64,000 nucleotides of DNA from Candidatus Uhrbacteria bacterium (GTDB lineage Bacteria; Patescibacteriota; Patescibacteriia; UBA9934). Each line of letters starts with the position of its first letter. The stretch's first letter is position 1. The stretch is from NCBI GenBank assembly GCA_963822405.1, contig CAWGHH010000004.1, forward strand, positions 6,226 through 70,225. Direction: 5' to 3'. The notes under the pieces were generated by a model that was given only the letters and a program-made list of their open reading frames with translations, was not told the origin of the DNA and made no database searches. Position numbers and translations under genes: made by a program. Below, piece by piece: positions 1 to 26,739 of this stretch.

Positions 1-401
1 CTGTAGACTGAGGCAAAACGAATATACGCTACCTTATCAAAAGTTTTTAAACGCTTCATGACGATCTCGCCTATCTCTGCACTAGTTAGCTCTCCCCCTC
101 TAATTTTTTGGATATCGCGCTCAATAGAATGCACCAAATGCTGCAGCTGAATATCCGTGTAAGGCCGCTTTTGCAAGGCCTGTTTAAGTCCGCTGATTAG
201 CTTTTCGCGCGAGTACGCTTCACGCTTGCCGTTCCGTTTCACTACAGTTACGTCGAGTAGCTCAATTTCTTCAACGGTGGAAAACCTAAAACCGCACTTC
301 TCTTTTTCGCATTCTCGACGACGCCTAACTCCCTGGCCATCAGACAGCAACCGCGAATCAACAACGCGGGTAGATTTAAAATTGCAGACAGGACAACGCA
401 T
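1..401 (-). CDS. nrdR: Transcriptional repressor NrdR (Zn-ribbon + ATP-cone), 3'-partial at window edge
   Basis: Manual translation of the minus strand from ATG at 401: MRCPVCNFKSTRVVDSRLLSDGQGVRRRRECEKEKCGFRFSTVEEIELLDVTVVKRNGKREAYSREKLISGLKQAL...GELTSAEIGEIVMKRLKTFDKVAYIRFASVY. This matches the NrdR CxxC...CxxC Zn ribbon and the ATP-cone ...VAYIRFASVY motif. It is absent from the ORF track because it runs off the edge. Confidence 0.85.
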   Translation of the reverse strand, partial: MRCPVCNFKSTRVVDSRLLSDGQGVRRRRECEKEKCGFRFSTVEEIELLDVTVVKRNGKREAYSREKLISGLKQALQKRPYTDIQLQHLVHSIERDIQKIRGGELTSAEIGEIVMKRLKTFDKVAYIRFASVY

Positions 402-405
402 AGCC

Positions 406-1722
406 CTACATCATCTTCCGGCGAATAAACGCTGGAATACCAAACTCGCCGTCATCATCTTTAGAAGCAGATTGGGATTGCTGTGGTGGTGGCGTAGAAG
501 GAGAAACTCTATTCTGCTGAGAAACTGGAGAAGGATTGAATGTTGGAACTGAAGGTTCAGCGGGAGGTTCAGAAGGGGTAAATTGAGAAACTGGCCGTCT
601 GCCAAAGGGCGAAGGCATCTCTTGCTTCTGAACAGGCTCTGGTGGCGGATTAAATGGCGCAGGCGGTGGCGTATAGCGACGTACCGGCTCTTGCTCTGCT
701 TGAGGACGCCAACCGGATTTAGGAGCAATGCCGATCTCTCCGCCCAAACTAGGCGCACGACGGTGATCTCGACTATCAAAACCGGTAGCAATGACCGTGA
801 TTCGAACCTCGTCTCCGAGAGTATCATCCTGAATAATACCGAAAATAACTTTTGCGTCATCATCAGCTGAACCAGTGATGATCTTAGCCGCCTCCTGCAC
901 CTCAAACATAGTGACATCAGCTGAACCTGCCACAGTAAACAAAATACCTTTAGCGCCATCAATCGAAACTTCAAGTAGGGGGCTGGCAATAGCCTGCTTA
1001 GCCGCGTCAACGGCTCTTGATTCACCAGACGCCCGACCAATACCCATGAGCGCGCTCCCAGCATTCTGCATGATCGCCTTCACGTCAGCAAAGTCTACGT
1101 TGATTTGACCAGGCACGGTAATCATTTCGGCAATTCCCTGAACGCCCTGTCTTAGTACGTCATCAATAATTCTAAATGATTCAGCCCATGACGTTTTCTT
1201 ATCGATCACCTGTAACACTCGATCATTGGGAATAGTAATAATGGTGTCTACGTGTTGAGCGAGCTCAGCGTGAGCGTCCTCCGCAATCCGTCTACGCTGC
1301 GCACCCTCAAACGTAAACGGCTTAGTTACAACCGCCACCGTCAAAGCGCCGATCTCTTTAGCAATTTTTGCAATGGCCGGCACAGCACCAGATCCTGTTC
1401 CGCCACCAAGTCCAGCAGTTAAGAAAATCATGTCAGCTCCGGCCAGCGCATCCCGAATTTCATTTGCGTTTTCTTCAACTGCACGTCTGCCCATGTCAGG
1501 ATTCATTCCAGCGCCTAGACCGCGAGTCACCGTCTTACCAATTGGAATTTTTAACGAAGCAAGGCTACCGTGAAGTGCTTGGGCATCCGTGTTTACCGCT
1601 AAAAACTCAATACCACGGATTTTCTCCGTGATCATACGATTAATGGCCGAGCCTCCCCCTCCCCCTACTCCGACCACTTTAATTTTGGCACAAGTTTCTA
1701 TTTCTGGCTTAAACTCGGCCAT
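406..1722 (-). CDS. ftsZ: Cell division GTPase FtsZ
   Basis: 438 aa. Tubulin signature GGGTGSG, N-terminal VVGVGGGGGSAINRM, and a Pro-rich C-terminal linker. Confidence 0.97.
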   Translation of the reverse strand: MAEFKPEIETCAKIKVVGVGGGGGSAINRMITEKIRGIEFLAVNTDAQALHGSLASLKIPIGKTVTRGLGAGMNPDMGRRAVEENANEIRDALAGADMIFLTAGLGGGTGSGAVPAIAKIAKEIGALTVAVVTKPFTFEGAQRRRIAEDAHAELAQHVDTIITIPNDRVLQVIDKKTSWAESFRIIDDVLRQGVQGIAEMITVPGQINVDFADVKAIMQNAGSALMGIGRASGESRAVDAAKQAIASPLLEVSIDGAKGILFTVAGSADVTMFEVQEAAKIITGSADDDAKVIFGIIQDDTLGDEVRITVIATGFDSRDHRRAPSLGGEIGIAPKSGWRPQAEQEPVRRYTPPPAPFNPPPEPVQKQEMPSPFGRRPVSQFTPSEPPAEPSVPTFNPSPVSQQNRVSPSTPPPQQSQSASKDDDGEFGIPAFIRRKMM

Positions 1723-1804
1723 ACGCGGTAGATGTTGAACACCAAGTGTGTTCAGGCTATTCCTTCAATGAATACGTTTTGTATTCTACCGTATAGTACA
1801 CCAT

Positions 1805-3070
1805 CTAAGGAATCAAGGATTTCATCCACTTTCTGAGTTGGCCGGCCACTTTATCCATGCTTTTCAAAGGAATCATCTTCCCGAAGTCAAACTTGCCCCC
1901 GGATACCTGTCTAATGCCGTACCCCCAGGATGCCAAGCCTATAGCCGTAGCAAAAGCCGGATCCTGGACTTCATCAATCACGCTCGTCACGCTCACCGGG
2001 GTACCAACCGCACAAGGAAGTCTGAGCGTTCTCTTAGCTACTTCTATTGCCCCCGGCGTTTTCATCACTCCTCCAGTGAAAACTACGCCGACCGGTAGCA
2101 TTCCAGAACGATCGATTTTTCTCAGCTCGTTATCAATAGCCTCAAAAATCTCTTCCATTCTGGCCTCAATTATTTCCGCTACAAATTTAATCTTCACCTC
2201 ATCATCAGCCTCGGCCCCAAAATCACGTAAAATAAATTGTTCTTTCCTATCTACCGAATCAGGTAATGCGTTTCCGTAGGTAACTTTTACTTGCTCGGCT
2301 ATATCAATAGAAGTTCGCAAGCCAATAGCGATATCATTTGTCACATGATCTCCACCAAGCGGAAGGACGGCCGTGTGCAGTAAATCCCCTTCTTCAAAAA
2401 CAGCCAATGAAGTGGTGGCCGAACCAACAGTCACCAAACACACTCCAAGCTCCTTTTGCCGCTGTGTAAGCACTGCTTCCGCGGTAGCAAGAGGAGCGTA
2501 GACCAAATCTTCAATATCCAACCCCGTGCGATAAACACACTTGGTCAAATTCTTCATGTGCGAATTAAGCGCCTCGATAATTACCGCGTCGACTTCAAGA
2601 CGAATACCTGACATGCCAACTGGATCCTTAATCCCCCGCTGACCGTCAACCGCAAAGCCCTTAGGAATCACGTGCAAAATTTCGTAATTTGACGGAACGG
2701 CAACAGTTCTAGCCGCTTCCATGGAACGTTCAACATCACCCTCGGAAATTTCACCCTCTGGACGAGCCACAGCCACTGCGCCACGACTTTCCTGGACCAA
2801 AATGCTCTGCCCAGCAATAGATACCCAAACATTATTCACCCCAATTCCAGTCATGCGTTCTGACTTTTCAAGGGCTTTGGAAACAGCCGAAACAGCGTCC
2901 TCCATACTAGAAACAGCACCGCGGTGCATGCCCGCAGACGGTGAAGAAACCGCTCCTACAACGTGTAGGGCCGGTTTGCCATCTTCTCCTGGGGAAACCT
3001 TACAAATAGCAATACGAATGGAGGAGGTTCCGATGTCCAAGCCCGTGATAATCTCATCGGCCATAGCCAA
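1805..3070 (-). CDS. ftsA: Cell division protein FtsA (actin-like ATPase)
   Basis: 421 aa. N-terminal GLDIGTSSIRIAI phosphate-1 motif. Sits immediately upstream of ftsZ in the canonical order. Confidence 0.93.
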   Translation of the reverse strand: MAMADEIITGLDIGTSSIRIAICKVSPGEDGKPALHVVGAVSSPSAGMHRGAVSSMEDAVSAVSKALEKSERMTGIGVNNVWVSIAGQSILVQESRGAVAVARPEGEISEGDVERSMEAARTVAVPSNYEILHVIPKGFAVDGQRGIKDPVGMSGIRLEVDAVIIEALNSHMKNLTKCVYRTGLDIEDLVYAPLATAEAVLTQRQKELGVCLVTVGSATTSLAVFEEGDLLHTAVLPLGGDHVTNDIAIGLRTSIDIAEQVKVTYGNALPDSVDRKEQFILRDFGAEADDEVKIKFVAEIIEARMEEIFEAIDNELRKIDRSGMLPVGVVFTGGVMKTPGAIEVAKRTLRLPCAVGTPVSVTSVIDEVQDPAFATAIGLASWGYGIRQVSGGKFDFGKMIPLKSMDKVAGQLRKWMKSLIP

Positions 3071-3095
3071 AAAATGGAAGCGTACTGGAGCGTGC

Positions 3096-3488
3096 TTAGA
3101 GCTTACAGTAATGAATTATAGCACAGACTTTTTCCAAGACTGGGAGATACAAAATAGCTATCCCAACAATGAGTGCCGTCAAAGCGGTTATCAGGACCGC
3201 CCCCGCCATCATATCCTTCACATCCTTCACCATTGGACTTAATCGAGGCTGAACCGCGTCAGCTACTCGCTCAATAATGCTGTTAATAATTTCAAGGACG
3301 AGAACTGCCGAACAAAGAAGAATAAGCAAAATACGTTGCCAGGCAGCCAAGTCAAGAGTCAGCATCAGGACCACGACCACGAACGTTGCCAACACCTGGA
3401 TACGGAAGCTCTGCTCCGAATGAAAAAGCTCAGCCAAACCCTGGAGAGCGTGGCGCAGACTCCTAAAAAATGAGCGGGGTGAAATCAT
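3096..3488 (-). CDS. dgkA: Diacylglycerol/undecaprenol kinase (DgkA family) membrane protein
   Basis: 130 aa, three TM helices. Has the EIINSIIERVAD motif, which is DgkA-like (ExxNSAIE). Overlaps ybeY by 4 nt. Confidence 0.75.
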   Translation of the reverse strand: MISPRSFFRSLRHALQGLAELFHSEQSFRIQVLATFVVVVLMLTLDLAAWQRILLILLCSAVLVLEIINSIIERVADAVQPRLSPMVKDVKDMMAGAVLITALTALIVGIAILYLPVLEKVCAIIHYCKL

Positions 3489-3910
3489 AGGACAGTGGCC
3501 ACAATTTTATCTTGTAAAGGAAACATCTCATCAGCGTCTTCCGCCTTTTCATGATCGTAACCGAGCACGTGAAGGATCCCGTGAACCAAGAGATCTGTCA
3601 GTTCAAGTTCAAGATCTTCATCCTCCGCCTGTCTAACTGCCTGTGGAAACGAAATAATGACATCGCCAAGATACCCAGACCTATCCCCGTCCGGCGAACC
3701 GAACGATAAAACATCCGTAATCTTATCCTTCTTTCTATACATCCTGTTTAGTCGACGAATCTCGGCATCGTCAACAAAACTTATAGAAACTATTCCTGTT
3801 GTTTCTTCTCGCAAGGCAACGTCAAGTGCCTTAGCAATCTTAAGAAGTGCGGCCTTAGTAAACCGGCTTCCCTTTGGCACTAAATCTTGTTGGCAATCAA
3901 ACGTGATCAT
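3485..3910 (-). CDS. ybeY: rRNA maturation endoribonuclease YbeY
   Basis: 141 aa. Conserved HGILHVLGYDHE zinc-binding motif of the YbeY/UPF0054 family. Confidence 0.93.
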   Translation of the reverse strand: MITFDCQQDLVPKGSRFTKAALLKIAKALDVALREETTGIVSISFVDDAEIRRLNRMYRKKDKITDVLSFGSPDGDRSGYLGDVIISFPQAVRQAEDEDLELELTDLLVHGILHVLGYDHEKAEDADEMFPLQDKIVATVL

Positions 3911-4884
3911 GGGAGAAGATTTAAACCATTGAGCATCATCTGGAAGGTGGTCAGGAATTCAATGGTTTTTTCATCCCCAAGGTCATAAGTCAAAGTAAAT
4001 ACATTACTACCTCCGTCAACATAAGCAATCCGCTGATCCCGACGAGCCATTGCTAGCAAACCCTCAGTGGTATATGTGGTCTCTAGTTGTTGAGAATTTT
4101 CGTTCGGCACGTTTTGCTGATACCAAGTTTCTAAACTCTGCGTGGAATCTTTTGGTGTAACAGTAATAATAATAGCGGCAGTAGTTGGAGAACGGAAAGT
4201 TACCTTAGCAGTTGTCGAGTCTGCTACTGGCGTCCAAGCAGACGGGTAATAAATAGTAAACGGCAGATCGGTGCCCTGGAATACTCGAACCGCGCCGGTA
4301 TCGAGCAGTGTCAACGGAGCGGGACCGTTCGGATTGTACCGGTGGAATACCTCATTCCCGTCCAAGAACGTATCGCCATCTGTATCTGGATTTCGGTAAT
4401 CTGTCCCGTATAAAAGTTCCTCAATATCAGTCAAACCATCCGAGTCAGTATCCTTACCAGGCTGAGGCTCTAAAACCACCGGAATCGGTGTCGGAGTTGG
4501 TTCAGGAATTGGTTCAGGAACAGGTGTCGGAGCAACTACCGGGACCGGCATGAAGTAGAGATAATAAACCGTTCCCGCGCTGCCAAGTGCCAGGACAAAA
4601 AGAAGCAGAAATAAGAAAAGTAATACTCTAAACTTCTTTTTTGGCGGTGGAGTTATCGTGGCGGGCTTTGGAGGAATTGGTGCTGGGGCAACTACCGGCA
4701 GAGGGATTGGAGCGGGTACAGGTACCGGCACTGGAATTGGCACCACGGAGCCCGGCACGGGCACCGTGGACGACAAAGCCTTCCCCACAAACTCTTTTGG
4801 CATGACATGAATAACCATGTCGTCAGTTTTTATTGACGGCACCAAATTGCTTGTAGGTTGCTGTTCCTCTTTTTTTCCGAACAT
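3907..4884 (-). CDS. Bitopic membrane protein with Pro-rich N-terminus and C-proximal DxDxDG (thrombospondin type-3-like) Ca-binding repeats; paralog 1 of 3
   Basis: 325 aa. PVPVPVPAPIPLPVVAPAPIPP tract, one TM (FRVLLFLFLLLFVLALG), then DTDSDGLTDIEELLYGTDYRNPDTDGDTFLDGNEV and ...YNPNGP. Confidence 0.7.
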   Translation of the reverse strand: MFGKKEEQQPTSNLVPSIKTDDMVIHVMPKEFVGKALSSTVPVPGSVVPIPVPVPVPAPIPLPVVAPAPIPPKPATITPPPKKKFRVLLFLFLLLFVLALGSAGTVYYLYFMPVPVVAPTPVPEPIPEPTPTPIPVVLEPQPGKDTDSDGLTDIEELLYGTDYRNPDTDGDTFLDGNEVFHRYNPNGPAPLTLLDTGAVRVFQGTDLPFTIYYPSAWTPVADSTTAKVTFRSPTTAAIIITVTPKDSTQSLETWYQQNVPNENSQQLETTYTTEGLLAMARRDQRIAYVDGGSNVFTLTYDLGDEKTIEFLTTFQMMLNGLNLLP

Positions 4885-4887
4885 ATT

Positions 4888-5598
4888 TTACGGAGTAGTT
4901 GGTATCTGCAAAAGCTTTCCTGGTCCATTTGGGTTATAGCCGCCCTGAACTTCGGCTCCGTCTAAGAATCCATCGCCGTCAGTATCTGTTCGGAGAGGAT
5001 CAGTACCGTACACTTTGACCTCCTCCCTATCACCAAGGCCGTCTCCGTCCGTATCCGGATTTGTAGACGAAGTTCCAGCTGACAGCTCATCAGCGTTATT
5101 CAATCCGTCGCCGTCACTATCAAGGAATGTTGGATTCAAGTTAGGTGGCGTCAATGTTTCAACTGTTCCAGGAACAGCGGGAACCACAGGCGTTGGAGTT
5201 GCTACCGGAGTCTCAACTGGCGGTACAACCGCCGGGGTCTCCGGAGTTACTACTGGCGCCTGCGTAACAACTGGCGCAACACTAACGCTCATGATCGGCT
5301 TGATCATCAGCGCGTAAGCAGCATATGCGCCCCCAGCAACAACCACTATAGCGACAATGATAATAACAATGTTACGAACTAAATTGGGATGTGGCGTAGA
5401 TTCTGAACCCCCTCCGACTCCCCCTGAAAGGGGGAGAGGCGACGCCACAGACTGCGTCGCAGTAGCCACCGGAGCCACAGCTGGTGCCAACTTTGGCGGA
5501 GGCGCAATAGAAGCGCGCTCAACAATACTTGGCTGAGCAGGTACTGCTGGTGGCTTATCCGTGCCAGCAAAAATGTCTTGTGGTTCTTGTTCGAACAT
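4888..5598 (-). CDS. Bitopic membrane protein with DxDxDG Ca-binding repeats; paralog 2 of 3
   Basis: 236 aa. Pro/Ala-rich N-terminus, TM (IVIIIVAIVVVAGGAYAAYAL), DSDGDGLNNADE...[14 protein letters not shown]...TDTDGDGFLDGAEV...YNPNGPG. Same C-terminal architecture as the 325-aa neighbour. Confidence 0.7.
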   Translation of the reverse strand: MFEQEPQDIFAGTDKPPAVPAQPSIVERASIAPPPKLAPAVAPVATATQSVASPLPLSGGVGGGSESTPHPNLVRNIVIIIVAIVVVAGGAYAAYALMIKPIMSVSVAPVVTQAPVVTPETPAVVPPVETPVATPTPVVPAVPGTVETLTPPNLNPTFLDSDGDGLNNADELSAGTSSTNPDTDGDGLGDREEVKVYGTDPLRTDTDGDGFLDGAEVQGGYNPNGPGKLLQIPTTP

Positions 5599-5619
5599 AG
5601 TGTGAAGAATATAAAACTC

Positions 5620-6468
5620 TTATTTCTTTAATGGATCGTGTCCGCTCGCCACCTCCGCCCCATCAGTATACCCGTCACCATCGGTGTCGGGATTTTGGTC
5701 AGAGGTTCCAAGGACGTGCTCTTCAGCTAATGTTAAACCGTCACCGTCAGCATCAGTAGCATTAAAGATATCGTGACAGCCAGCTATAGCATCCGACGGA
5801 AGTGCATCACAGGATGCGGGATTACCGGTAGCTATAGCCGTGTCGAGCAACTTTTTAGCATCACAGAATTCTATAGGCACACCATGACTGGCGCAATCAC
5901 CCAACCTGGCAGCGACCGAGCTAATCACTCCCCTACACGACGCGAGAAGAGTCGAGTCCGAGATAGCATCACACGCTTTGTAGTCTATTTTTGCCGATGC
6001 CATTACCAGTGTAGCGCCATCCGAACAGGCTTGCTTTTCTGCACCCGACAAGACGTCGCAAATCAGAGGGTCTGCATTGTCGGTCGCGATCAATGCCACG
6101 CAATTAGCATATTCACCGTCCGCTAAGCCCTTGCAGCCGTCAACAAATCCAACCTGTCGAGCAGCTCCAGATTGAGAAGTTCCGTTAGCTACCATCTCCT
6201 GCACGGCCGCTGTTTTTTCAACTATCACTTTTTTGGCTGCTGAGCTAGAACGAAGTGCGTTCGCCGCGAATACAACAACAAGCCCAACAACGACCATCAA
6301 TCCCAAAGCAGAAACCGCCATTATTACTAACTGTCGCTTCTTATACCAAGGAGTAAGCTTTGGAGTTGTCTCTTCAGGTGAAAGCGAATAGAACACCGGC
6401 TGAGCGACTGGTGGCTGAACGGGAGGTGTAGAGACAACCTGTGGCTGTTGGGGCGTCAGTTCTTCCAT
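5620..6468 (-). CDS. Bitopic Cys-rich membrane protein with C-terminal DxDxDG Ca-binding repeats; paralog 3 of 3
   Basis: 282 aa. Pro-rich N-terminus, TM ([21 protein letters not shown]), 12 Cys in the ectodomain, C-terminal [12 protein letters not shown]...[15 protein letters not shown]. Confidence 0.7.
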
Positions 6469-6469
6469 A

Positions 6470-9400
6470 CTACGGTGAACAATAGTTGATCTTCACGTCA
6501 GAAAGCTTCACCTGTCCAGTACCTCTAAAAGTAACCTGGATCGGAATCTGCTTAGTGGTCGAACCATCACACTTAAAGCCAGAAGGCCAAGGCAATGTCT
6601 GACTAGAACCACCACGAAGTGCCACCGAATCTTGGTGAGCACCAGCAGAATCTGTGCTTAATAATCGGACGGTCACGCCAACAATTGAATTAATTACTCT
6701 TTCGTACGCGGTTCTGAGCTCTACCGCAGTATTTGCAGCGTAAGAATAATCGATACCTGTAGAACTACTATATTCGGTGCCCGTATTGCTCGACCACTGG
6801 TTCATGTGCGAAATAAATTTAGAACTAGAAGACAGCGCGATCGTATAAAGCTCGTAATCATCAAGCTTATCCGCTTGAGTATTTGCCCCCTTTAATGACC
6901 AAGAGGAAGTATTGGCGTTACAATCCCCACTCGTATAAGCGTTTCCAAGACTATCCATTCCACAAAATCCTGATGTAGTTGGGGTAGGCGCTACATCAGA
7001 CAAGAGAACAACTATTTTTCTCACGGTTGGAGAAAGTGGCGAAGTGACAGTGTCAAGTAAAGTTTTCGCCGCCAATAGACCCTGACCAATATCTGAACCG
7101 CTAATTACCGTGTAACCGTTTATTCTGGTTGTCAAAGTTGATTCACCTGTTTGATCAAGCATAGCTGACTGAGAGGTCGTATCGCCGAATTCAACTAATC
7201 CAACGTGCGCCTTAGCCGCCAACTCGCTAAAAAGAGTTGACACCGAACCCTTGAGAGAATCCTGCGTGGAACTTAACTTAGTGGTAGTCGTACCGCCAAA
7301 CACACTTCCCATCGAAGCCGCGCGAGTCGTCACAAAAACCACATACGCGTCAGGAAAAACAATATTGTCCAGAGATATACTACCAGAGAACCTTCCTGAA
7401 ACCGTACATGCAGGAACAGTGATGATGGTTGCGTTTGGTAAAGTTGAGGTCGAAGCTGCATCGTATGAATATAAATCTACACTCGAGCTTGGACGAGAAC
7501 CGGGCTGATTAGCTGTCATGAGTAGACTCGAATCAGAAAGTGATAATGGACAAGAGGAAGCGCATGATGCTGAACATTTAGGCTTCACACATTCGTAACT
7601 GAGACCAGCGGACTGGTCCTCACAATCAGCAACGTCTCCATAATAATGAGATAAAGTGATGTAGCTAGCCGTACACTTCTTTCCATTTCTCGGACCTCCG
7701 TTACAAACGCCGACATCGCTGCAAGTCGAACCGGCATCCACGACCGTAGTTGTCACGCTAGAAGACCTGATTAAGAGACATTTTGTCGGAGTCTTTGGCA
7801 ATGTTCCAGTGAACGCAGGACAGAATTCGCCAAAACTATTGCAGGAAGAATTGCCACCATCAAGATTATAGGCCGCGCATACAAATTGATTATTGCTGTT
7901 TTGTACACACTTGACCTTACCGCCAGCATTTTTGATAGCACCTGTAGCTTGACCGCAACTAGTGTCACCAAAGCCACTGCAAGTTTGTGTTGTAGCTATG
8001 CCACAGTCAAACGAATCACTAACCGTTGTAACTTGATGAGAGCTAGTTATCAGCTGCTGACCCAATGAGCTACAAGTGCCTGAAGTCGTATCTGTTTCTG
8101 CGTCGTAGAAGGTGTAGGGAACGTCAGTACCGTCGCAATATTCAGTCCCGTTCTTCACGCCGTCGCCACAGAAAGCGCCAGATGAAACCACATTTCGACA
8201 AGTAGTCGAACAGGCGCTACAGGTTGAGCCGTAAGACGAACTGCATGATCCGCCGTTTTGTACGCCAAGGTCACATTCTTCGGCAACTGGGTTCAAGGCA
8301 CCGTCGCCACAGACGTTCAACTTACAAGAAGAGGTACAGGCATCAGTGTCGTTCAAATTTCCATCGTCGCAGGTTTCGGCTCCCTCAATTTTTCCGTTTC
8401 CACAGGAAGGAAGATTAGTAGCGGAACAGTCAGTCGAAACGGTTGATAGCTGACAGGTTCCCGAACAAGTCTGGAACTTACTTGTAGGGTACATCTGAAC
8501 ACTGCACTTACCGCTCGTGCCACACATGCTATCTATAGTACAAATTTTTCCAAGTTTATCTATATCTCCTTTTTCACAAACCCGAGACGGCACGCACAGT
8601 GCGTCGGAAATGATTTTAACCTCTCCAACCTCACACTGTTCGTCGCTGTCTAGGTGCTTGTCGCCACAGTAAGGTGCAGGTCCAGAGCAATCCCAAGCAC
8701 AAGAAGTAGTGGCGTTAGATTGATAGACGCCATTTATTGCGCCACACGTTCCACCGCCAAAAGCTCTTCGGCCAACAAGAGGCGGCGTATTTCCACAGTC
8801 ACACTTTTCACTACCGGCCAACGAACCATCGCCGCAAGAAAAGCCGCTAGCCCTGGTACAATCCGCACCACAGAATCCATATGAGCCGTTCTTTGAACCA
8901 TCATCGCACTGCTCTATACCGTCCTTCACACCGTTACCACAAGTAGCGGCAACACAAGCTGCCTGCGTGTTATCCACAAAACCAGTACAAGAAGAATTAC
9001 AAATCTGTTTCCGGAAACCATCCATTATTCCGTCAGCGTTCCCGTCACAGGCCACTTCAGTCCCGCCAATCGAACCAACCTCGCAAACTTCTCCAGAACC
9101 AATTACGCCATCGCCACAGGTTGTCGAAGTGCCGAGAACCGTGTTCTGACAAACGTCGCCGGTGCTGAATCCACCAGTCGAACTATTTGCTCGACCAACA
9201 GTGATCTGCACGCCGTCTTGCAAGCCATCAGCATCAATCGAATTCGCCCAAGCCCCAGCAAATTCTAGATCAGCGTTAATCAACGTCGAGCTGTTTCCGT
9301 TCGCCAAGTACTGATAAACATGAGAACCAGCTGGACAAGTGTATGTGCCTTTAGTGGTGTCTACGCAAGTTGTCTTGTCATAACTAACAAGCGAGCTACC

Positions 9401-11074
9401 AACAACTCCACAGCCCGCAAAAGAATTCAATGGATCGGCCGGTAATTCTTTTGTACCAAGCGCACCACCAAGTATATCTGCCCAGCTTGGCCAAGTACTA
9501 GCGGCTACGTTTCTGACAAATGTACCAGCGGCTAATTCAGGAACGATTGGCGAACAGGATTCACCAAGCGGACATTCGGCACTTGTAGAACAAAGCTTTG
9601 AACGCGTTCCCGAGCAAACGCTATTTTCAGTGCTATAAGTTTTTACAGCCGAACGAATATCCGTCAGATCAGACAGGCGACGTACATCACGACGCACCTT
9701 TGCCTTAGTAGAAAGACAAACCGCACCAGGAGCGGCCGAAACACAATCAGCATCTGACGAACAGGTCTTATCCGTCAATGTTCCGTTAGCCAAACAGACT
9801 GTGTCATTTCCAAGATCTATGGCAAAGGAAATATTTCCAAGCATTAAATCAAATATTTTTTGAGCCGAGGCACTTGCTCCGTCGTTATACGATAAAACGT
9901 AAATATTGGAGTATAGCTTTCCGCCGCTATAATTAGAGGCTGAGACATAAACTGTTCGACCATCACGAACTGCCTCAAAACCGTCTACAGTTGTGTTTAC
10001 CGGACTACCCTTGAAGTTCTGCGCGTCATACCAAGCACGCGGCGAAAGGTAGCCAGGGTTGCTGACAATTCTTACGCCAATAGCATCACCAGAGTTATCA
10101 CCGATTTCAAACAAATACTGCTTAAGAATGTTCGTCGTTCCGCCTACTGGTGCCCGAACCGGCGTCACCGAAGGCAAGTCGTCAGTCAGGCCGACAGCTC
10201 CCTGATCTCGACAGAAATACGTAGAGAAATTCATCCAGCCATTTCCCTCTGAAGCCAATCCTTGAGCTCCACCAGTAGCATTGTCCTGCCATGGGAATTT
10301 AGACAATGTTGGCCAAGGATTTTCACAAAGAAGGGCCGTAACCTGAGCCGATCCCTTAGTCTTTTTATCTTTTGTTCCGCCAAGTGTATCCGCAGTGATA
10401 ATGGCCTCGGCCAGAATAGTTGTCTGACCGTTCTTACCAACAGTAGCGATACTCGCGGTGCTGTGATCAACACTGCTCTGTAGGGCAGTAAATAAAGCAG
10501 CATCACCGCTCACCCACTTGTCATAATCCCAAGCGTACACGTTTACAATCGGCACAATTTCTTGCGGGCCAGTAGCGGAATGAGAAACCGCCTTCGCTAC
10601 AAAGTTATGCATCTGATCTCCACGAGTAAAGAGATATGGACTGGTTTTATCAGTGTCTGAAATCTGAACCGCATCGAGAGCACAAAGTGATGGGCCAGTA
10701 GTGAAAGTAGAGGAAGTGACACCGCCCAAAGCAACGCCAGATGCCGCAGCTATTCCGGTTACTGACGAGTCGTTCACGTTCGTGTCACCCTCGACGACTA
10801 AGGTGTACTTAGCATTTGGCTCAAGTGCTTTTGCGTACTTCAAGTAAACTTTGTAAGTGCCATCATCCTGTGCAACCTGCGAGTATCCAGTCACCGGCAA
10901 CAAACACTTGGCGCCAACATTCGGCGCAGCTGAGGCAGACGCGCCCATGAAGAACCGAACGATCGAGTTTTTGACTAACGCGAAGAATCCCTTTGGATCA
11001 TGCGAAAGGGCAACCTGATAGCCACTTGGGCAAGTCATGTTCGGAGATACTGGTTCGAGCTGGCCCAGGACCAA
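6470..11074 (-). CDS. Giant (>=1534 aa) secreted Cys-rich repeat protein with C-terminal vWA-like domain; start uncertain (may be fused to the upstream giant ORF)
   Basis: Long ORF. Multiple C-x-CGDG/CGNG...E-CDDG...C repeats (e.g. [29 protein letters not shown]; [28 protein letters not shown]) of the Myxococcus-type cysteine-rich-repeat kind. C-terminal region resembles a vWA fold (AYVVFVTT...[10 protein letters not shown]). The 5' end overlaps the upstream ORF by about 77 to 100 nt in another frame and the tracked start is TTG. Confidence 0.7.
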
Positions 11075-14000
11075 CCGGAGCGCCGCCAGTCTCCAAGCTC
11101 AAATACATGTGATTTGTTTCAACTGTAGTAGCACCAACCACACTTGTTGTTGTAAAAGATTCTGTGTTCATCTTCTGCGTAAAGATAGCGTAGATAGCCG
11201 GGTTTCTACATGACGTAGAAGACGCAGTTGGGAACAAAGTAGCAGTTGGCCTTGGCATGCAGCAGTGCGCCGAACCAACTCCGTAAAGCGAAGGATTTGT
11301 ACAGCTAGCATCAGACGTGGCCACGCAAGAAAGAGAAAGATCGGCTGTAGTAGAAAGACCGGACGAATCTTCAGTCACTTGCACGGTAGCTAGAGCCTTC
11401 TTGGTTGTTCCATCCACCTCGAACACTGCACCATCAGAAATCACCGCAGTTTGCAGAGGATCGATTCTGCCGTCACCGGCTACGCCAACTTCACAAGCTG
11501 GATATTCGCCCACTCCAGCAAACCCGTCACCACAGAAAGATGCTTCCGTGTAAGCCGTGGAGGATCCCTCAAATAGACAGCGACTAGAACAGCCATCGCC
11601 GCTTACTTGGCTGCTATCATCACAGTCTTCAAAGACAGGACTGACGTCCCCATCGCCACAACCCTGCGCCTCCGTACCACCTTCATGCAAACAAGAAGAC
11701 GAACAGCCATCGCCGTTTACCACGTTCGAATCGTCACAGCTCTCAGCTGGAGCATCAACTCGACCATCGCCACAAACAGCCCCACCAATAGAAGCTAAAG
11801 TTGGCGTACCTTCGTTTGTACAGTTAGAAGAACAGCCGTCACCGTTTCTAGCGTTCCCGTCATCACATTCTTCACCGGCTTTAGTAGTAGCGTTTCGAGC
11901 AATGTCGTTGTTTCCGCAGGTTGCACCAACAGATCTAGAACCTTCGGCCTGACATTTACTAGAACAGCCGTCACCGTCAACCCCATTATGGTCATCACAA
12001 TCTTCCGCTAGATCGATCGTTCCGTTTCCACACATTGGAACAATAGTACCTTCACGTAAACACGAGGCCGAACAGCCATCGCCGCTTGCTACATTACCGT
12101 CTTCGCATTCTTCACCAGCAGTCGCGTCAAGCCGACCGTCGCCGCAAATAGCACGGTAGGCCACGCTGCCACCGGCAGTACATGAAGCTGTACAGGCGGA
12201 AGGAACTGAAGATGGGGACGTGTCCTGTAACTTTCCACCCAACCATTCAGCAACTACCGTTGAAGCATTACCATCAATGTTCTTGTCTACGATCGGGTTC
12301 GCCCAAGACCAAGAATATGAGAATCCGGTGAGTCTCTGACCAGACTGAGAACAGCTATCAGCCTCTCCGTATGCAGTGCTAGAGAATGTTGCCCTATCCC
12401 CAATCGATTTAGCTAATACACTAGCCGGGGAAATAGAAACTCTATTCACAGCACAAGCACTAGCATCTTCTCGAGCCCGGAAAATCCAAGAATAATCGCC
12501 ACCGTCATTTGTTCTGATTAATGGCACGCCACTCATACTCTTAACCGAGCCTGAGACAATTACCTTGTAAAAAGTGCTCGGATTCAAAGTGACTGTGGAC
12601 AAGGAGAAACCAGTACAATCGCCGGAAATACCAGTAACAGTGATACATTTAGCATTTGGGTTGGCAACTTCGCTAGTCGAAGAACAGAGTTCATTAGCAC
12701 AAGAGAACAAGCGAACAGCACCAGCCATTTCAACAGTCTGTGGCTTCATTGGAATGTTGAAACTCGCCCCGATCTGAGCGTTCATGCAAGCAGAATCACA
12801 ATCCGGCCACACACCCGTGACGTACGGATCTGTAAATTTAATGGTCAAATCACCAGCGCCCGAAGTGGTAGTGGTTCCAACAGTTGCTTTCACCGGAGTC
12901 TGGCCCTCAGCTAAAGCTTCAGCTGTAGCGCAAGAACTATTGCCACCAACACAAGATGGATTAGCCGTGCTATTAAAACCAGCAAAACTTGGGTTCATGC
13001 TCCACGCCCAGGTCACTGAGGCTGGATCAACCACTACACATCCAGAGGTTGGCAAGGCCGAGAAACTCTGCGTAGCATTCTTTGTCGTAAGCGAGGCTTT
13101 AGACGGAGAAACGCGAGCGCTATCAATTACACATGAACCGGCGTCAGTCTTAGTTAAGAATGTCCATTGAACATCATTCGGAAGAGCTATCCCGTCAGCC
13201 GACTGCGCATCAGTGGTGACAGTCACTCGATAGGTTGTGCCGGTGGCAAACACTGAGCCCGGCTTAAAAGTGAACGAGCTAGCGGTAGTTTGAACTGATC
13301 CGGTTACTGAAACCGCCGTAGAACACGGGTTAGATCCACCACCAGAACAACGCTCAACTTTCACCGCGCTGCCAAGCGTCGCTTGATTCATTGGGACAGT
13401 GAACTCCGCATAAACAACCGCGTTCACACAAACGGTATCTGTGAACTTAATGTTCGGCACAGAAGAAACAACAGCCTGTGAACATTCAGAAACAATTCGC
13501 GGAACCTTTGGCACAGATCCAGAAGAGAAACTCCAGGCGTAGCCACCACCCACCGCGCCAAGAGATACTGCCGGCGAGGAGACCGAGAATGGCACGTCAT
13601 TTCCCTTTACGCCGGCCGCGTTTACCAGACGAACGTTTCCTGATTGCGCCGCCGGAGGGACTACTGCTTTTACTTCAGTGTTACTCCATGAGCTGATGAC
13701 AGAAGTGACGCTCGACGAAAAAGTAACCGCTCCTTTTGTGCTTCCAAAATGGTCGCCCACCATTTTAACGACGTCTCCCGAAACACCAGTGCCAGGAATA
13801 ATGCCACACACATTTGGAGCATCATCCGTGGTCGATATAGTGAATGGAATAGTATTCGAATTCTGACCTCCAGCTGTAGTCATTGAAATAGTGTAAGCAC
13901 CAGGAAGCAAAGCAGTTCCCGCAGTACTGCTACCAGGAACAATAAATCTAACTGAAGTTGGGCTCCATGGGTTTACGGTACCGCAAGCCGCCGGGAAGTC

Positions 14001-16136
14001 TAAGCTAGCAATACCAATATCACCCGTGGCTGTATTCTTAAATTTAACCGTACCTTTAGCTGTGCCAAAATTGGCGCCTTCTAAACTGACGTATCGGCCA
14101 ATACCGCCCTGTCCAGGGTTTATAGATAGAAGCGAAGGAGCAGGAGTATTGGTTCCTGCGGTACCACCGGCTGAAGGAGGAATAGTCGATCCTGGCGTAG
14201 TGCCACCGGGAGGCGTGGTTCCGCTCGGGGGTGTAGTTCCGCCAGCTGAAGAACCTGCAGCGGCCGAAGTAAACCGCAAGCTAATCGAATTTGAAGAAAC
14301 CCCAGTTCCAGAAACTACTCGAACGCCGAATAATCCGTCACGCGTAGAAAGCACCGGCACAACAACCTGGGCTGAAGTGTCGCCCCACACTGGATATGAA
14401 GAACCGGTTTGAGCATTACCGAATGCAATAGTCGAGGCATTCACGCCCGACGGAGTTCTGTTCGCCCCGAATCCAGCGCCGATCAAAGTCAGCGAATCAC
14501 CAGCCTTAGCGCTCATGGCTGAAAGGCTACAAAGGTTAGGATGAATCACCGCGTCAACCACGAAGTTAGCAATCAGTGGACCTCTAACGTCACCCGTAGC
14601 ATCACGGCCAAGATCATCAGTTGCGTCAGCTCGAACAATTGAAATTGGACCGTTACCGGTGCCAGCAGGCACAACCACAATTACCTGGCGATCAGTCCAA
14701 CCTCCGTCACATGGCGCAAGTTGCGCCTCGATTGGAGCGCCGGAAGTAGCGAAAAATACTTTTCCTGGCGTAGCTCCAAAACCGTTACCAGAAATAGTTA
14801 CGTAAGTTCCAGGCGCGCCAGAAAGAGGAGAAACAGCTCTGATCACCGTCATGGCCTTACAAGTACCATTAACACAAGAGCCGGATTGGCAGTCAGTTGA
14901 AGCAGTACAGACAGAACCATCACACGCACCACAGTAATTAATGTTGGTCGGATCTCCGCCACAATCAATTCCAGTTTCGCCACTGCCAGAATCTAGAATG
15001 TTATTTTGACAACTTGCTGGCGACAACATAACAGAAACCGAATCCTCGGCCGTGTTCCCGGCCAGGTCAGTAATCGTCGACGAAAGATTAATAGTGTTGC
15101 CCGCATCAATATTGCTCGTATCCCATGAAGTACTGATAGTCACATTTTTCGGATCAGTTCCGCTGGCTGGCACTTCGTCAAAGCTCACGCTGCCAGCTAA
15201 GAATGTAGCGCTTGCCACCCCAACGTCGTCCGTTCCGATCACCTGCACATTCTGTGAACTATTCGCAGCGATTCGTTGTCCAGAAGTAGGGTCAGTTAAT
15301 CTGGCAGTTGGTGCTGTTTCGTCAATGATCGTCCCAGTTGTAAACGTGCCGGTACATGGACGGCTAGTAGGACAGGTCAACGCAGCCGCAGAAGTATTCT
15401 TAATGGCAGTAGTTAAAGTAACAGTGAACTGTGTGCTAGCGTCGAAACATCTAGTCACGGAACCAGTGGAACAAGGCGTAGTTGGCTTAAACGTGATCAC
15501 GTTCCCAGAAACGGAAGGCGTGCCATCAATAACCGCGCCGGTAAGTGTATTTTTTACTGTGAATGCCCCAGCGATGCTTGCTGGATCAACATTCTTTGAG
15601 AATGTAACCCGAACTTGAGGATTACGAATAGTGATTTCTCCGGCAGGTTTTACGCCAGTCACTACGAATGCACTACCAGAGCCTCCGCCAAGCGCCGAAC
15701 CTCCGCCGGCACCACCCCCACCACCAGTGCCACCGCTCCCGCCGGCTCCAGTCGCGCCCAAGATAGAGGACATAACAAAAGACACAATAGACCAGGACAT
15801 CAAGATAATCATGAGGCCAATTCCACCACCAATCAAAATCTTTTTAGCTTTCGCGACATTCTCTTCGTTTCCAGCGGCCGTCATCCAAACAAAACCACCG
15901 TAAAGAACAATCACCACCGCCACAACACCAAGCAAAGAAATTCCAGTTCTAATCAAGCGCGCCACGATGAGTCTAGGATCTTCGCTGCCCAAGCCAGCTG
16001 ACTGCCCCACCACATCAAGCCCGCCCTGGACATCCGCCGACTGGGCTAAAGCGATCATCGGCAAAGCGAACGGCAAGGCCGTACTCGCCATGACGAGTGC
16101 TCCGAGGACTAGATGTTTTAAGGGCTTGATGTTCAC
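10998..16136 (-). CDS. Giant (1712 aa) cell-surface protein: signal peptide + 2-TM hairpin anchor, Gly-rich linker, Ig-like and IPT/TIG-like domains, Thr/Pro linker, six Cys-rich CGDG...CDDGN...GDGCS repeats
   Basis: N-terminus MNIKPLKHLVLGALVMASTALPFALPMIALA-QS (AxA-type cleavage site). TM1 ISLLGVVAVVIVLYGGFVWMTAAGNEENVAKAKKILI, TM2 GGGIGLMIILMSWSIVSFVM, then a GGSGGTGGGGGAGGG linker. IPT/TIG-like segments (SGAPGTYVTISGNGFG; GQGGIGRYVSLEGANFG; GVSGDVVKMVGDHFG). C-terminal repeats such as ICGDGRLDATAGEECEDGNVASGDGCSASC, six copies. Confidence 0.85.
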   Translation of the reverse strand: MNIKPLKHLVLGALVMASTALPFALPMIALAQSADVQGGLDVVGQSAGLGSEDPRLIVARLIRTGISLLGVVAVVIVLYGGFVWMTAAGNEENVAKAKKILIGGGIGLMIILMSWSIVSFVMSSILGATGAGGSGGTGGGGGAGGGSALGGGSGSAFVVTGVKPAGEITIRNPQVRVTFSKNVDPASIAGAFTVKNTLTGAVIDGTPSVSGNVITFKPTTPCSTGSVTRCFDASTQFTVTLTTAIKNTSAAALTCPTSRPCTGTFTTGTIIDETAPTARLTDPTSGQRIAANSSQNVQVIGTDDVGVASATFLAGSVSFDEVPASGTDPKNVTISTSWDTSNIDAGNTINLSSTITDLAGNTAEDSVSVMLSPASCQNNILDSGSGETGIDCGGDPTNINYCGACDGSVCTASTDCQSGSCVNGTCKAMTVIRAVSPLSGAPGTYVTISGNGFGATPGKVFFATSGAPIEAQLAPCDGGWTDRQVIVVVPAGTGNGPISIVRADATDDLGRDATGDVRGPLIANFVVDAVIHPNLCSLSAMSAKAGDSLTLIGAGFGANRTPSGVNASTIAFGNAQTGSSYPVWGDTSAQVVVPVLSTRDGLFGVRVVSGTGVSSNSISLRFTSAAAGSSAGGTTPPSGTTPPGGTTPGSTIPPSAGGTAGTNTPAPSLLSINPGQGGIGRYVSLEGANFGTAKGTVKFKNTATGDIGIASLDFPAACGTVNPWSPTSVRFIVPGSSTAGTALLPGAYTISMTTAGGQNSNTIPFTISTTDDAPNVCGIIPGTGVSGDVVKMVGDHFGSTKGAVTFSSSVTSVISSWSNTEVKAVVPPAAQSGNVRLVNAAGVKGNDVPFSVSSPAVSLGAVGGGYAWSFSSGSVPKVPRIVSECSQAVVSSVPNIKFTDTVCVNAVVYAEFTVPMNQATLGSAVKVERCSGGGSNPCSTAVSVTGSVQTTASSFTFKPGSVFATGTTYRVTVTTDAQSADGIALPNDVQWTFLTKTDAGSCVIDSARVSPSKASLTTKNATQSFSALPTSGCVVVDPASVTWAWSMNPSFAGFNSTANPSCVGGNSSCATAEALAEGQTPVKATVGTTTTSGAGDLTIKFTDPYVTGVWPDCDSACMNAQIGASFNIPMKPQTVEMAGAVRLFSCANELCSSTSEVANPNAKCITVTGISGDCTGFSLSTVTLNPSTFYKVIVSGSVKSMSGVPLIRTNDGGDYSWIFRAREDASACAVNRVSISPASVLAKSIGDRATFSSTAYGEADSCSQSGQRLTGFSYSWSWANPIVDKNIDGNASTVVAEWLGGKLQDTSPSSVPSACTASCTAGGSVAYRAICGDGRLDATAGEECEDGNVASGDGCSASCLREGTIVPMCGNGTIDLAEDCDDHNGVDGDGCSSKCQAEGSRSVGATCGNNDIARNATTKAGEECDDGNARNGDGCSSNCTNEGTPTLASIGGAVCGDGRVDAPAESCDDSNVVNGDGCSSSCLHEGGTEAQGCGDGDVSPVFEDCDDSSQVSGDGCSSRCLFEGSSTAYTEASFCGDGFAGVGEYPACEVGVAGDGRIDPLQTAVISDGAVFEVDGTTKKALATVQVTEDSSGLSTTADLSLSCVATSDASCTNPSLYGVGSAHCCMPRPTATLFPTASSTSCRNPAIYAIFTQKMNTESFTTTSVVGATTVETNHMYLSLETGGAPVGPGPARTSISEHDLPKWLSGCPFA

Positions 16137-16145: not shown

Positions 16146-17936
16146 TTAAAAGAGGACGCAGGCAGAAGCCGACGAAACTCCGTTGCAACAGTAAGGGGAA
16201 GAGGCAGTAACACCACAAACACCACCCGTCGCATCCGGTCCAGCGCCTGGTACATAACAATTCTGATACTCGTTCAAAAGTCCACTCGTGACCGTCGAGC
16301 CATATTCGTAAGTCTTGCCGTCAACTGACTGCAGGAACGTACCGTGGCTTATTTTCACAAGCGTCTGAGCGGGAATCTGAGAACCAGAAGTCACTAACTC
16401 GCCATTACTCGTTAAGTATGAAGTGCTTGGCGAATACCACATTTCATGCGAAGTGTTGGTTGATAATTCCTTATTAGACAAACTAATCGTGTCTTGTGAA
16501 ATGGTCGAGGTCATTAAAACGCCATCAAAAGTCACCAGCACTGGCTGATCAAGTGGCACATTCTCCTCAGAAATATTCGGCGAGATAGAAGTTATACTTG
16601 GCCCCTTAAGCGCAATGTCACCAGTGGTCGAAAAGCCCCAGGCGAAGCTGTCTCCGGCCGTTCCGTCATGATTACCGTCTAACGAGTTACCAGCCATGTC
16701 GACAACCCCGTCATATGGGAAGATATCAGCCTGCGGAGGATTCGTGGTGGTAGTCGCGCCTCTAACAGTTGCTGTCAGAGTACTGCTTCCCGGAAGACAG
16801 ACGATTGTTTCACCGCAAGAATTAGTTCCGCATGGACTGTCAGAATGGAACGTAACTGATGTATAGCCGTTGGAAATTTCATACGTTCCAGTCACCGGAG
16901 TAGCACCAGCAGTAATGGCGATATTTGAAAATCCCCCAGCCTGAGCGTGTTGACCGGAAGCTGACGTAGGATCAACTGGTTCAGAAAAAGTAGCTTGCAC
17001 TACAATGTTTCGAGCAAACGTACCAGCATTTGCCGGCGTCACGCTCACGATAGTAGGAGGCGTGAGATCAAGAACGGTACCAGTTTCAAATGACCATTTG
17101 TAACCACCGCTATATGAACCAGCAAAGATTTTGTTTCCGCTGGCATTTTTAATATCAGCAGTCAGTTGCACCGTGTACTGCACTTTACTGGTTGGCGAAC
17201 CTAAATAGACGGCCGGCTTAAAGACAAAAGTCCTGTGATCATCAGTCGAGCTGATCGTCACATCTGTCAAAGCTCCTGGCGCACCAGACGCCGTAGGAAA
17301 AATCTTAACCGAGCCTACCGTGACCGTAGCTGGATCAATCGCTTCCTTAAAAGTAAGCATCACTTTAGCGTTCCTCGCTACGTCTGTTTGATTACGTGTT
17401 GGGTAGTGATCACGAATCGGCCCGGAACCAAGCGCGCCAGATAGACTCTCTACGGAAACTCCCCCATTACCGCCGCCACCAGTACCGCCATTACCACCGC
17501 CAGTACCACCGGTGATAGCGTTTATCACGAATGTTGTAATCCCGTATGCGCTCAGCGTAATAACAATTCCGACCGTAGCTTGAATTAAAATATTCTTAGC
17601 CTTAACAACCTTTTTGTCATCCCCACCGGCCGTCATCCAGATAACTCCAGCGTAGATTGTCAAAATAAGAAAAACAACTCCCAACAATCCTAGGAATATG
17701 CTGATTATTCGACCGATGATTGTAGGAAGATCAGCTCCCCCAAGTCCGGCCGTGGCCGCTACCTGCGCTGCTTGATCTGTCTGCGCTAAAACGTGTGGCG
17801 CAGAAAATAAAAAGCCGCCCACAAAAACACCAAGGCCAAGTAAAAGAGAAATCCGCGCCGTTCGGCTCAACATAGTCCCCACTATTTTACCGCAAAAAAA
17901 GAGTCCCCACGTTATTTGCATGGGGACACTTTCCAA
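16146..17936 (-). CDS. Cell-surface protein (596 aa by first ATG; likely start at 17873) with the same signal-peptide/2-TM N-terminal module followed by bacterial Ig-like (Big/SbsA-type) domains
   Basis: MLSRTARISLLLGLGVFVGGFLFSAPHVLA-QT, then IIGRIISIFLGLLGVVFLILTIYAGVIWMTAGGDDKKVVKAKNILIQATVGIVITLSAYGI, then GGTGGGNGGTGGGG. Big-like PTIVSVTPANAGT...VQATFSEPVDP. The N-terminal module is collinear with that of the 1712-aa protein. Confidence 0.85.
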   Translation of the reverse strand: MESVPMQITWGLFFCGKIVGTMLSRTARISLLLGLGVFVGGFLFSAPHVLAQTDQAAQVAATAGLGGADLPTIIGRIISIFLGLLGVVFLILTIYAGVIWMTAGGDDKKVVKAKNILIQATVGIVITLSAYGITTFVINAITGGTGGGNGGTGGGGNGGVSVESLSGALGSGPIRDHYPTRNQTDVARNAKVMLTFKEAIDPATVTVGSVKIFPTASGAPGALTDVTISSTDDHRTFVFKPAVYLGSPTSKVQYTVQLTADIKNASGNKIFAGSYSGGYKWSFETGTVLDLTPPTIVSVTPANAGTFARNIVVQATFSEPVDPTSASGQHAQAGGFSNIAITAGATPVTGTYEISNGYTSVTFHSDSPCGTNSCGETIVCLPGSSTLTATVRGATTTTNPPQADIFPYDGVVDMAGNSLDGNHDGTAGDSFAWGFSTTGDIALKGPSITSISPNISEENVPLDQPVLVTFDGVLMTSTISQDTISLSNKELSTNTSHEMWYSPSTSYLTSNGELVTSGSQIPAQTLVKISHGTFLQSVDGKTYEYGSTVTSGLLNEYQNCYVPGAGPDATGGVCGVTASSPYCCNGVSSASACVLF

Positions 17937-18016
17937 CCCAGAGAGAAATATGTATCAGAAAATTTTTAGGAGGTAACCCGACTCAAATTTTATGATGCAT
18001 ATTTCTCTCTGGGTTG
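17936..18016. repeat. Conserved-loop hairpin element, copy 1 (about 30-bp perfect stem; loop TTAGGAGGTAACCCGACTC on the plus strand)
   Basis: Left arm aacccagagagaaatatgtatcagaaaattt, loop ttaggaggtaacccgactc, right arm aaattttatgatgcatatttctctctgggtt. The arms are reverse complements, allowing G-U pairs. Confidence 0.85.
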
Positions 18017-18028
18017 TAAGCCTTTTCA

Positions 18029-26660: not shown

Positions 26661-26737
26661 GGAATGAAGAGATATGTCCCATAAAATTTGAGTCGGATTA
26701 CCTCCTAAAAATTTTATGGGACATATCTCTTCATTCC
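26661..26737. repeat. Conserved-loop hairpin element, copy 2a (loop GAGTCGGATTACCTCCTAA on plus, the complement of the other copies)
   Basis: Arms ggaatgaagagatatgtcccataaaattt and aaattttatgggacatatctcttcattcc are perfect reverse complements around a 19-nt loop. Confidence 0.9.
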
Positions 26738-26739
26738 TA

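Follow-up and report, generated by a model that had tools for sequence, protein, structure and literature searches.

A predicted giant cysteine-rich protein of Patescibacteria, encoded in two overlapping reading frames in a Candidatus Uhrbacteria contig

On the minus strand of a 64,000-nucleotide stretch of a Candidatus Uhrbacteria contig (CAWGHH010000004.1; the whole stretch is called the window here, and all positions are counted in it), two giant open reading frames of 1712 and 1534 amino acids follow one another in different frames, and the locus raises the question whether these are two genes, as the source annotation has them, or a single gene that has been broken and, if so, by what. 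An earlier sequence-only reading of this DNA had placed both frames where they are indeed present, and had proposed that they might be one surface protein of about 3,200 amino acids split by an indel of the kind seen elsewhere in the window. Judged by comparison with relatives, the two frames, called ORF1 and ORF2 below, are one gene, frame-split, and this gene belongs to a family with conserved sequence and synteny in Patescibacteria (Uhrbacteria and relatives). The elements on which this question turns are the following.

10998 to 16136, minus strand: ORF1, N-terminal half of the giant gene, 1712 codons from a GTG start to a premature TGA (from the listing of open reading frames).
6470 to 11098, minus strand: ORF2 frame, open for 1542 codons and coding for the C-terminal half of the giant gene, without a signal peptide (from the match of its C-terminus).
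11033 to 11090, minus strand: interval in which the frame must change, with 1 nucleotide surplus or 2 missing (from conserved blocks in each frame).

ORF1 begins at 16136 and ends with the TGA at 11000-10998. The ORF2 frame had been described as open from about 11103 with only a TTG start; it is in fact open from 11098, immediately after an in-frame TGA at 11101-11099, and continues to 6470 as 1,542 codons with neither a stop nor a further frameshift. A TTG at 11074 is indeed its first start codon, and the length of 1534 amino acids (11074 to 6470) is counted from there, but in-frame ATGs follow at 11038 and 10948, the second of which is the start taken in the source annotation. Open frames of more than 1,500 codons would be far beyond chance in DNA of 48% G+C. 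ORF1 and ORF2 overlap by 77 nucleotides (about 100 when the open frames are counted), with ORF2 in the +1 frame relative to ORF1, and deletion of a single base in the overlap, for example one G of the GGG at 11066-11064, gives a continuous fused protein of 3,221 amino acids. Both ends of this protein agree with the family: the GTG start of ORF1 gives a signal peptide (MNIKPLKHLVLGALVMASTALPFALPMIALA/Q) equal in length to that of the relatives P0004 and P0005, and the C-terminus of ORF2 (...VKINYCSP) fits the conserved family end, ...N.YC[AS]P.

The evidence that carries the one-gene interpretation comes from the relatives. When a fused junction segment of 804 amino acids was searched with HMMER against 1.84 billion representative proteins, 1,319 matches were obtained, 559 of them at E<=1e-30, and dozens of proteins of 3,050-3,600 amino acids align with query residues 1 to about 800 in one uninterrupted match, which occupies about residues 1500-2300 of their own sequences. 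Alignment of 23 full-length relatives (3,050-3,570 amino acids) through the junction shows conserved blocks on either side of it, those read in the ORF1 frame (CC.xRP, CRNAA.Y..F.Q.MD..SF, xMY..L) being followed by a variable loop of 0-25 residues and then by those read in the ORF2 frame (CP..GY/H, GDC..P, Y.V...GD, F.TG...C.LD). The fused sequence of 3,221 amino acids is collinear from end to end with 15 full-length relatives (P0004-P0018) at 39-47% identity, and invariant cysteine, glycine and tryptophan columns run along both halves of that alignment. In five syntenic Patescibacteria loci (L004, L005, L008, L009, L018) both halves lie in one frame, and in four of them the single open reading frame was confirmed, with lengths of 3,257 (L004), 3,195 (L005), 3,405 (L008) and 3,518 (L009) amino acids. 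Gene order is shared as well: in all five loci a pilin-anchored protein of about 600 amino acids, the giant gene, three small proteins with thrombospondin-type-3 repeats, and ftsA stand in this sequence. The proposal of a single giant protein is thereby supported, orthologs carrying it as a continuous frame. The assembled sequence itself is not the one uninterrupted reading frame that characterizes the family, a departure that concerns the assembly as it stands and not the ancestry of the gene.

Word-indexed protein searches with a 575-amino-acid junction segment and with the last 131 amino acids of ORF1 returned nothing, and it was the exhaustive HMMER search that found the relatives. Among GTDB species representatives the closest loci lie in metagenome-assembled genomes (MAGs) of Patescibacteria (Uhrbacteria, Magasanikbacteria, Falkowbacteria and several mislabelled third-party-annotation (TPA) bins), and the contig search of these representatives gave no close strain, the best match having 39% identity. 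Exact DNA searches for both junction flanks in Joint Genome Institute (JGI) metagenomes gave no matches. The closest named relative is KKW29181.1, a 'Multiple EGF-like-domain protein 3, partial' of Candidatus Uhrbacteria.

The alignment also fixes the position of the break. The last conserved block in the ORF1 frame (xMYLSLE) ends at 11091 and the first in the ORF2 frame (CPSGY) begins at 11032, so the frame changes between 11090 and 11033; besides the GGG already mentioned, G11056 is a candidate for the surplus base. In this interval the longest run is 3 nucleotides, as it is in the wider stretch 11100-10998, and the interval has no simple-sequence tract and no slippery site. At the protein level the break lies inside the variable loop of an Ig-like domain and not at a domain boundary. 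At the start of ORF2 Pfam recognizes only the C-terminal half of a Big_5 domain (profile positions 52-105), and the end of ORF1 carries the N-terminal motif P..C.N..I.A.F...M, which also occurs in the two Big_5 domains before it. For the fused junction segment of 240 amino acids, AlphaFold2 gives a model with a predicted local distance difference test score (pLDDT) of 85.3 and a predicted template modelling score (pTM) of 0.77, with confident strands on both sides of the break and low confidence in the loop only; its PDB matches are weak (E>0.02) and are to Ig-like modules of SbsC and of L,D-transpeptidases. The loop is about 11 residues longer than in the closest relatives, still within the range of the family.

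Read through the break, the fused protein has the following order of domains.

15762 to 16136, minus strand: signal peptide and VirB2-like T4SS_pilin membrane hairpin, residues 1-125 (PF18895 and hydropathy).
13557 to 15668, minus strand: Ig-like stalk with Big_5 (residues 157-267), Big_7 (276-347), a small cysteine knot (376-426) and four IPT/TIG domains (430-860) (Pfam).
12477 to 13472, minus strand: two Big_5 Ig-like domains, residues 889-1220 (Pfam, 77.4 and 60.6 bits).
11547 to 12146, minus strand: five canonical and one degenerate Myxococcus-type cysteine-rich acidic repeats, residues 1331-1550 (TIGR02232, DUF4215).
10697 to 11264, minus strand: Ig-like (Big_5-type) domain with an inserted loop, its halves split between ORF1 and ORF2 (Pfam, alignment, AlphaFold2).
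9140 to 10342, minus strand: unannotated central domain, fused residues 1932-2332, with motifs LCENPWP, GDAIGxRI, YLSP..WY, DPLN and Y.CP.GS..Y.Y (family alignment).
7526 to 9118, minus strand: second cysteine-rich region with one canonical and several variant repeats, fused residues 2340-2870 (TIGR02232 35.9 bits, DUF4215 25-27.9 bits).
6797 to 7348, minus strand: C-terminal von Willebrand factor A (vWA) domain, a borderline match, fused residues 2930-3113 (Pfam VWA, segment alone).

An anchor and Ig/IPT domains had been recognized in ORF1 from the sequence, and Pfam finds them. T4SS_pilin (PF18895) matches residues 66-121 at 33.9-36.5 bits against a gathering cut-off of 26.6, and the hydropathy scan shows within residues 1-130 a signal-like segment (8-32) followed by two transmembrane segments (56-90 and 99-130), that is, a two-helix hairpin after the signal peptide. 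The IPT/TIG domains score 69.2 bits in 4 stretches. The identification of the repeats as the Myxococcus type holds, with TIGR02232 at 145.3 bits in 5 stretches of ORF1, and so does their continuation into ORF2 (35.9 bits), the curated cut-off being 20.8; DUF4215 reaches 52.9 bits in the ORF1 repeats against a cut-off of 27, and at the DNA level a repeat family, D1, covers 11565-12095. The earlier count of six repeats in ORF1 is approximately right, five being canonical and the sixth degenerate. The vWA-like domain proposed for the C-terminus passes the Pfam cut-off of 23.8 on the isolated C-terminal segment (25.5 bits) but not on the whole of ORF2 (21.8 bits); in relatives the domain is clear.

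The best-conserved part of the protein is the central domain, with a mean column identity of 50%. No Pfam family above its cut-off, no PDB sequence match and no significant Foldseek match to its AlphaFold2 model (pLDDT 76.5) was found for it. The region RD..R..DL..I......Y ... DPLN ... Y.CP.GS..Y.Y within it may resemble pseudopilin-type domains, a resemblance that the searches do not support and that stands as a lead only.

What broke the gene has to be judged against the state of the sequence around it, and at least five other genes are disrupted in about 54 kb of the window. In rpsS (minus strand; 56396-56408) an extra T at 56400, beside an A7 run, breaks S19. In rpsC (minus strand) the frame changes by +1 at 55711-55725, after MGHKVHPKAFR. 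A -1 change at a G run at 45091-45104 (GAGGGGCC) splits map (minus strand) into 170 and 94 amino acids, and the reverse transcriptase gene of a retroelement (minus strand) is broken by a -1 change at a G10 run at 46575-46584. An aspS-like gene for a class II tRNA synthetase (minus strand) is interrupted at a conserved position (...FEKTEDGG*TFTHNPF...) by an in-frame TGA, 41105-41107, beyond which the frame goes on as the synthetase; this TGA may have arisen by nonsense mutation or by substitution error, or may serve as a read-through site. The sequence-only reading had spoken of other homopolymer frameshifts in the window, which is correct for the reverse transcriptase gene, map and rpsS but not for rpsC, where no homopolymer is present. 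Its view of the giant gene as one more such indel accords with the surrounding disruptions and needs one correction, since the break in the giant gene is itself not at a homopolymer. Reassignment of UGA (code 4 or 25) was considered and rejected, since TGA ends normal genes here and the problem between ORF1 and ORF2 is a change of frame, not a stop.

An independent view of the same DNA is offered by Logan k-mer contigs from run ERR12037365, which cover 29 kb of the window and are identical to it there except at two bases. One is a single-nucleotide polymorphism at 19055, in an hflX-like GTPase gene, with C in the window and T in Logan contig L002, from which it follows that the window and the Logan contigs are not the same consensus. 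The other is the extra base of rpsS, which Logan contig L003 lacks; the S19 encoded in L003 is intact, with 108 amino acids. Thus at least one of the breaks is specific to the window assembly. The remaining four recur identically, that of rpsC in L003 and those of map, aspS and the reverse transcriptase gene in L084, which fits systematic read errors without proving them. For the giant gene itself the informative contig is L001, which is 100% identical to window positions 1 to 11055 and ends at 11055, inside the 58-nucleotide interval of the frame change. With 7 contig ends in 29 kb the chance of an end falling in that interval is estimated at ~1-2%, no repeat explains the end, and its position points to reads that conflict or become sparse at precisely 11055.

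Taken together these observations make it probable that the break is a consensus or assembly error in error-prone data, a cause that we infer, the orthology and the position of the break being shown. A surplus base, or two missing bases, would then be an artefact, and the organism would make the full-length protein of about 3,221 amino acids. This reading is favoured because of the density of disruptions in the window (at which about 0.9 disruptions are expected in a gene of 9.7 kb, by our arithmetic), the assembly-specific indel in rpsS, the end of L001 within the interval, and the 1,542 codons over which ORF2 stays open. The breaks in rpsS, rpsC, map and aspS likewise point to data quality, since four essential genes broken within 64 kb would not be possible in a viable cell.

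Several observations weigh against an assembly error. The interval contains no homopolymer longer than 3 nucleotides. Four of the neighbouring breaks, recurring as they do in the Logan contigs, must be genuine or else reflect systematic read errors. Of the 173 columns of the ORF2 half that are invariant in the 15 relatives, 13 are violated here (7.5%, the highest of the 16 sequences); for the ORF1 half the figure is 5 of 184. The ORF2-half departures include the Asp and Ser of the metal-ion-dependent adhesion site (MIDAS) of the vWA domain, where codons 7313-7327 read T-R-A-A-S and not D-x-S-x-S while all 15 aligned relatives keep DxS/TxS/T, and the DG motif, which reads DV here (fused residue 3048) and is kept as DG in 15 of 15. 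Such departures could mean that the distal half is no longer made and that constraint on it has relaxed; they are read equally well as a change of the vWA domain peculiar to this lineage.

It is unlikely, though far from negligible, that the frameshift is instead real and very recent, in which case the cell would make a truncated, anchored protein of 1,712 amino acids without the central domain, the second cysteine-rich region and the vWA domain, ORF2 being an untranslated remnant; the locus would then be either a newly formed pseudogene or a gene whose host-attachment protein is shortened at the level of the strain. Consistent with this, some of the breaks that recur in the Logan contigs may be genuine, the departures from invariant positions are in excess in the ORF2 half with the MIDAS motif lost, the end of L001 at 11055 would also fit two co-existing alleles, and strain variation is reported to be concentrated in large exported proteins of other candidate-phyla bacteria (PMC4736985). 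Against this, an event that has left 1,542 codons without a stop or further frameshift would have to be very recent, since neutral decay long enough to account for the excess substitutions is estimated to give several stops; the breaks in rpsS, rpsC, map and aspS cannot all be real in a viable cell; and one of them, in rpsS, is specific to this assembly. The narrower proposition that the break is real and is one of two co-existing population alleles, one giving the full-length protein of 3,221 amino acids and the other a stump of 1,712 amino acids without the central and vWA modules, is improbable; if true, an uncultured ultra-small bacterium would naturally vary its main host-contact protein in length or switch it on and off.

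Contingency loci are common among surface-protein genes, and the giant gene, which would encode a surface protein, could in principle be regulated by programmed +1 ribosomal frameshifting or by slippage phase variation that joins or separates its halves, since a +1 shift anywhere in 11090-11033 gives the full-length protein. Such a switch is very improbable here. A frameshift at this point is needed in none of the 23 aligned relatives and none of the five syntenic loci. Phase variation would call for a simple-sequence tract at the switch point (short tandem repeats, or a homopolymer of some 7 nucleotides at least), whereas no run in the interval exceeds 3 nucleotides. A programmed +1 shift would call for a slippery P-site codon followed by a stop or hungry codon, whereas none is present, the context of the ORF1 stop (GCA TGA T) cannot re-pair in the +1 frame, and the conserved CPSGY block, for which the ORF2 frame is already in use, comes upstream of that stop. 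A stimulator of the prfB type is also not available to a genome that does not use Shine-Dalgarno sequences: a Shine-Dalgarno-like motif precedes only 1 of 33 confident start codons in the whole window, the upstream regions being A+T-rich instead. Because this genome hardly uses such sequences, the test for a ribosome-binding site before ORF2 is uninformative.

Natural fission of the giant gene does occur in the family and shows what two genuine genes look like. In L012 (7737-8128) the pilin module has a gene to itself, of about 130 amino acids, in front of an open reading frame of 3,850 amino acids with its own signal peptide, and in L057 (15326-15359) the gene is split into 2,257 and 1,136 amino acids by a spacer of 33 nucleotides, with a new hydrophobic N-terminus on the downstream gene; these fissions suggest that the VirB2-like pilin module and its passenger are separable units. 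Despite these precedents and the two genes of the source annotation, it is hardly credible that ORF1 and ORF2 are separately translated products of such a fission, since the downstream genes of L012 and L057 begin after a spacer and with a hydrophobic signal or anchor of their own, and a natural fission would be expected at a domain boundary, whereas the two frames overlap here, the break cuts through an Ig-like domain, the candidate starts of ORF2 lie in G+C-rich, coding-like sequence unlike the A+T-rich regions upstream of the real genes of the window, and ORF2, as the sequence-only reading had it, lacks a signal peptide (the hydropathy scan finds no hydrophobic segment over its whole length), so that its disulfide-rich domains would stay in the cytoplasm.

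The genes on either side of the giant gene are those of its relatives.

16146 to 17936, minus strand: upstream paralogue-like gene, 596 amino acids, with a pilin-like anchor and two Big_5 domains, beside the giant gene in relatives too (domains, synteny, DNA repeat D5).
3907 to 6468, minus strand: three small downstream genes with thrombospondin-type-3-like repeats, 282, 236 and 325 amino acids, kept after the giant gene in relatives (domains, synteny).

Around these lie housekeeping genes of the chromosome (topA, der, relA/spoT, hisS, parAB, hflX, ftsAZ). A palindromic intergenic element of about 42 nucleotides (AAATTTTTAGGAGGTAnnCCGACTCAAATTT) occurs in three copies (17944-18019, 26668-26800 and 40606-40647), one of them just upstream of the pilin-anchored gene of 596 amino acids; it could be a terminator or an operator. 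The retroelement mentioned above is a diversity-generating retroelement at 46130-48740 on the minus strand, with a template repeat at 47517-47642, a variable repeat at 47965-48090 and the reverse transcriptase gene at 46130-47169. The two repeats are 126 nucleotides long and have 12 differences, each at an A in the template copy; the variable repeat is at the 3' end of an open reading frame of 259 amino acids (47961 to 48740), and a bAvd-like gene and the reverse transcriptase gene are adjacent.

The domain architecture of the giant protein, together with the literature on related bacteria, suggests an adhesin-like role, that of a membrane-anchored protein with a very long, disulfide-stiffened stalk carrying binding modules. 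The Sec signal peptide and the VirB2-like two-helix pilin domain would fix the N-terminus in the membrane; from this anchor a long rod of Ig-like and IPT domains and disulfide-rich Myxococcus-type repeats would extend outside the cell; and the central domain and distal vWA domain carried on the rod would probably be the ends that bind a host cell or a substrate.

Closest to it are the uncharacterized giants of Patescibacteria MAGs (KKW29181.1, the JGI 'cysteine-rich repeat protein', the open reading frames of L004, L005, L008 and L009, and P0004-P0018), which share its domain order, pilin-like anchor, ...YC[AS]P end and neighbourhood; unlike them, the copy in the window has the frame change, TRAAS for the DxSxS of the MIDAS, DV for DG, and the longer junction loop. 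With the Myxococcus repeat proteins (TIGR02232 myxo_disulf_rpt / DUF4215) it has in common the unit C-x-CGDG-x-E-x-CDDGN-x-GDGCS-x-C, far above curated cut-offs, and many Myxococcota loci are retrieved through the cysteine repeat alone; the Myxococcota proteins, however, match only the repeat region (query residues of about 1300-2700), while the pilin anchor, the Ig/IPT stalk, the central domain and the architecture as a whole are confined to the Patescibacteria family. In Peribacteria, large cysteine-rich proteins exported by signal peptides, probably surface-attached and weakly similar to the Myxococcus cysteine-rich repeats, have been described, and an attachment role has been proposed for these proteins, in which the strain variation noted above is concentrated (Anantharaman et al. 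2016, PMC4736985). Those proteins come from another lineage, have a lower average length (about 1,655 amino acids), and are compared with the protein of the window by features, not by orthology. VirB2-like pilin proteins (PF18895) are widespread in Patescibacteria, often in arrays (PMC12102498). Typical VirB2 pilins are small, whereas here the pilin domain makes up the first 4% of a protein of 3,221 amino acids, and two adjacent genes carry it; among the 10 large open reading frames of the window that were scanned there is no VirB4 or other gene of a type IV secretion system.

For the annotation of such genomes the consequence is a practical one: in a contig with breaks or stops in several essential genes, calls of pseudogenes and split genes are not to be trusted without reads, and the source record, with its two unrelated proteins of about 1,500-1,700 amino acids, obscures a surface protein that is among the largest and best conserved of the lineage and would inflate counts of protein families. 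Read as one gene, the locus offers a candidate for a protein by which an uncultured member of the Patescibacteria attaches to a host or a substrate, and its family, in which a VirB2-type pilin module is fused to (or, in L012, stands beside) a passenger of more than 3,000 amino acids and is kept near cell-division genes, could represent a previously undescribed display of an adhesin on a pilin scaffold of the type IV secretion system type.

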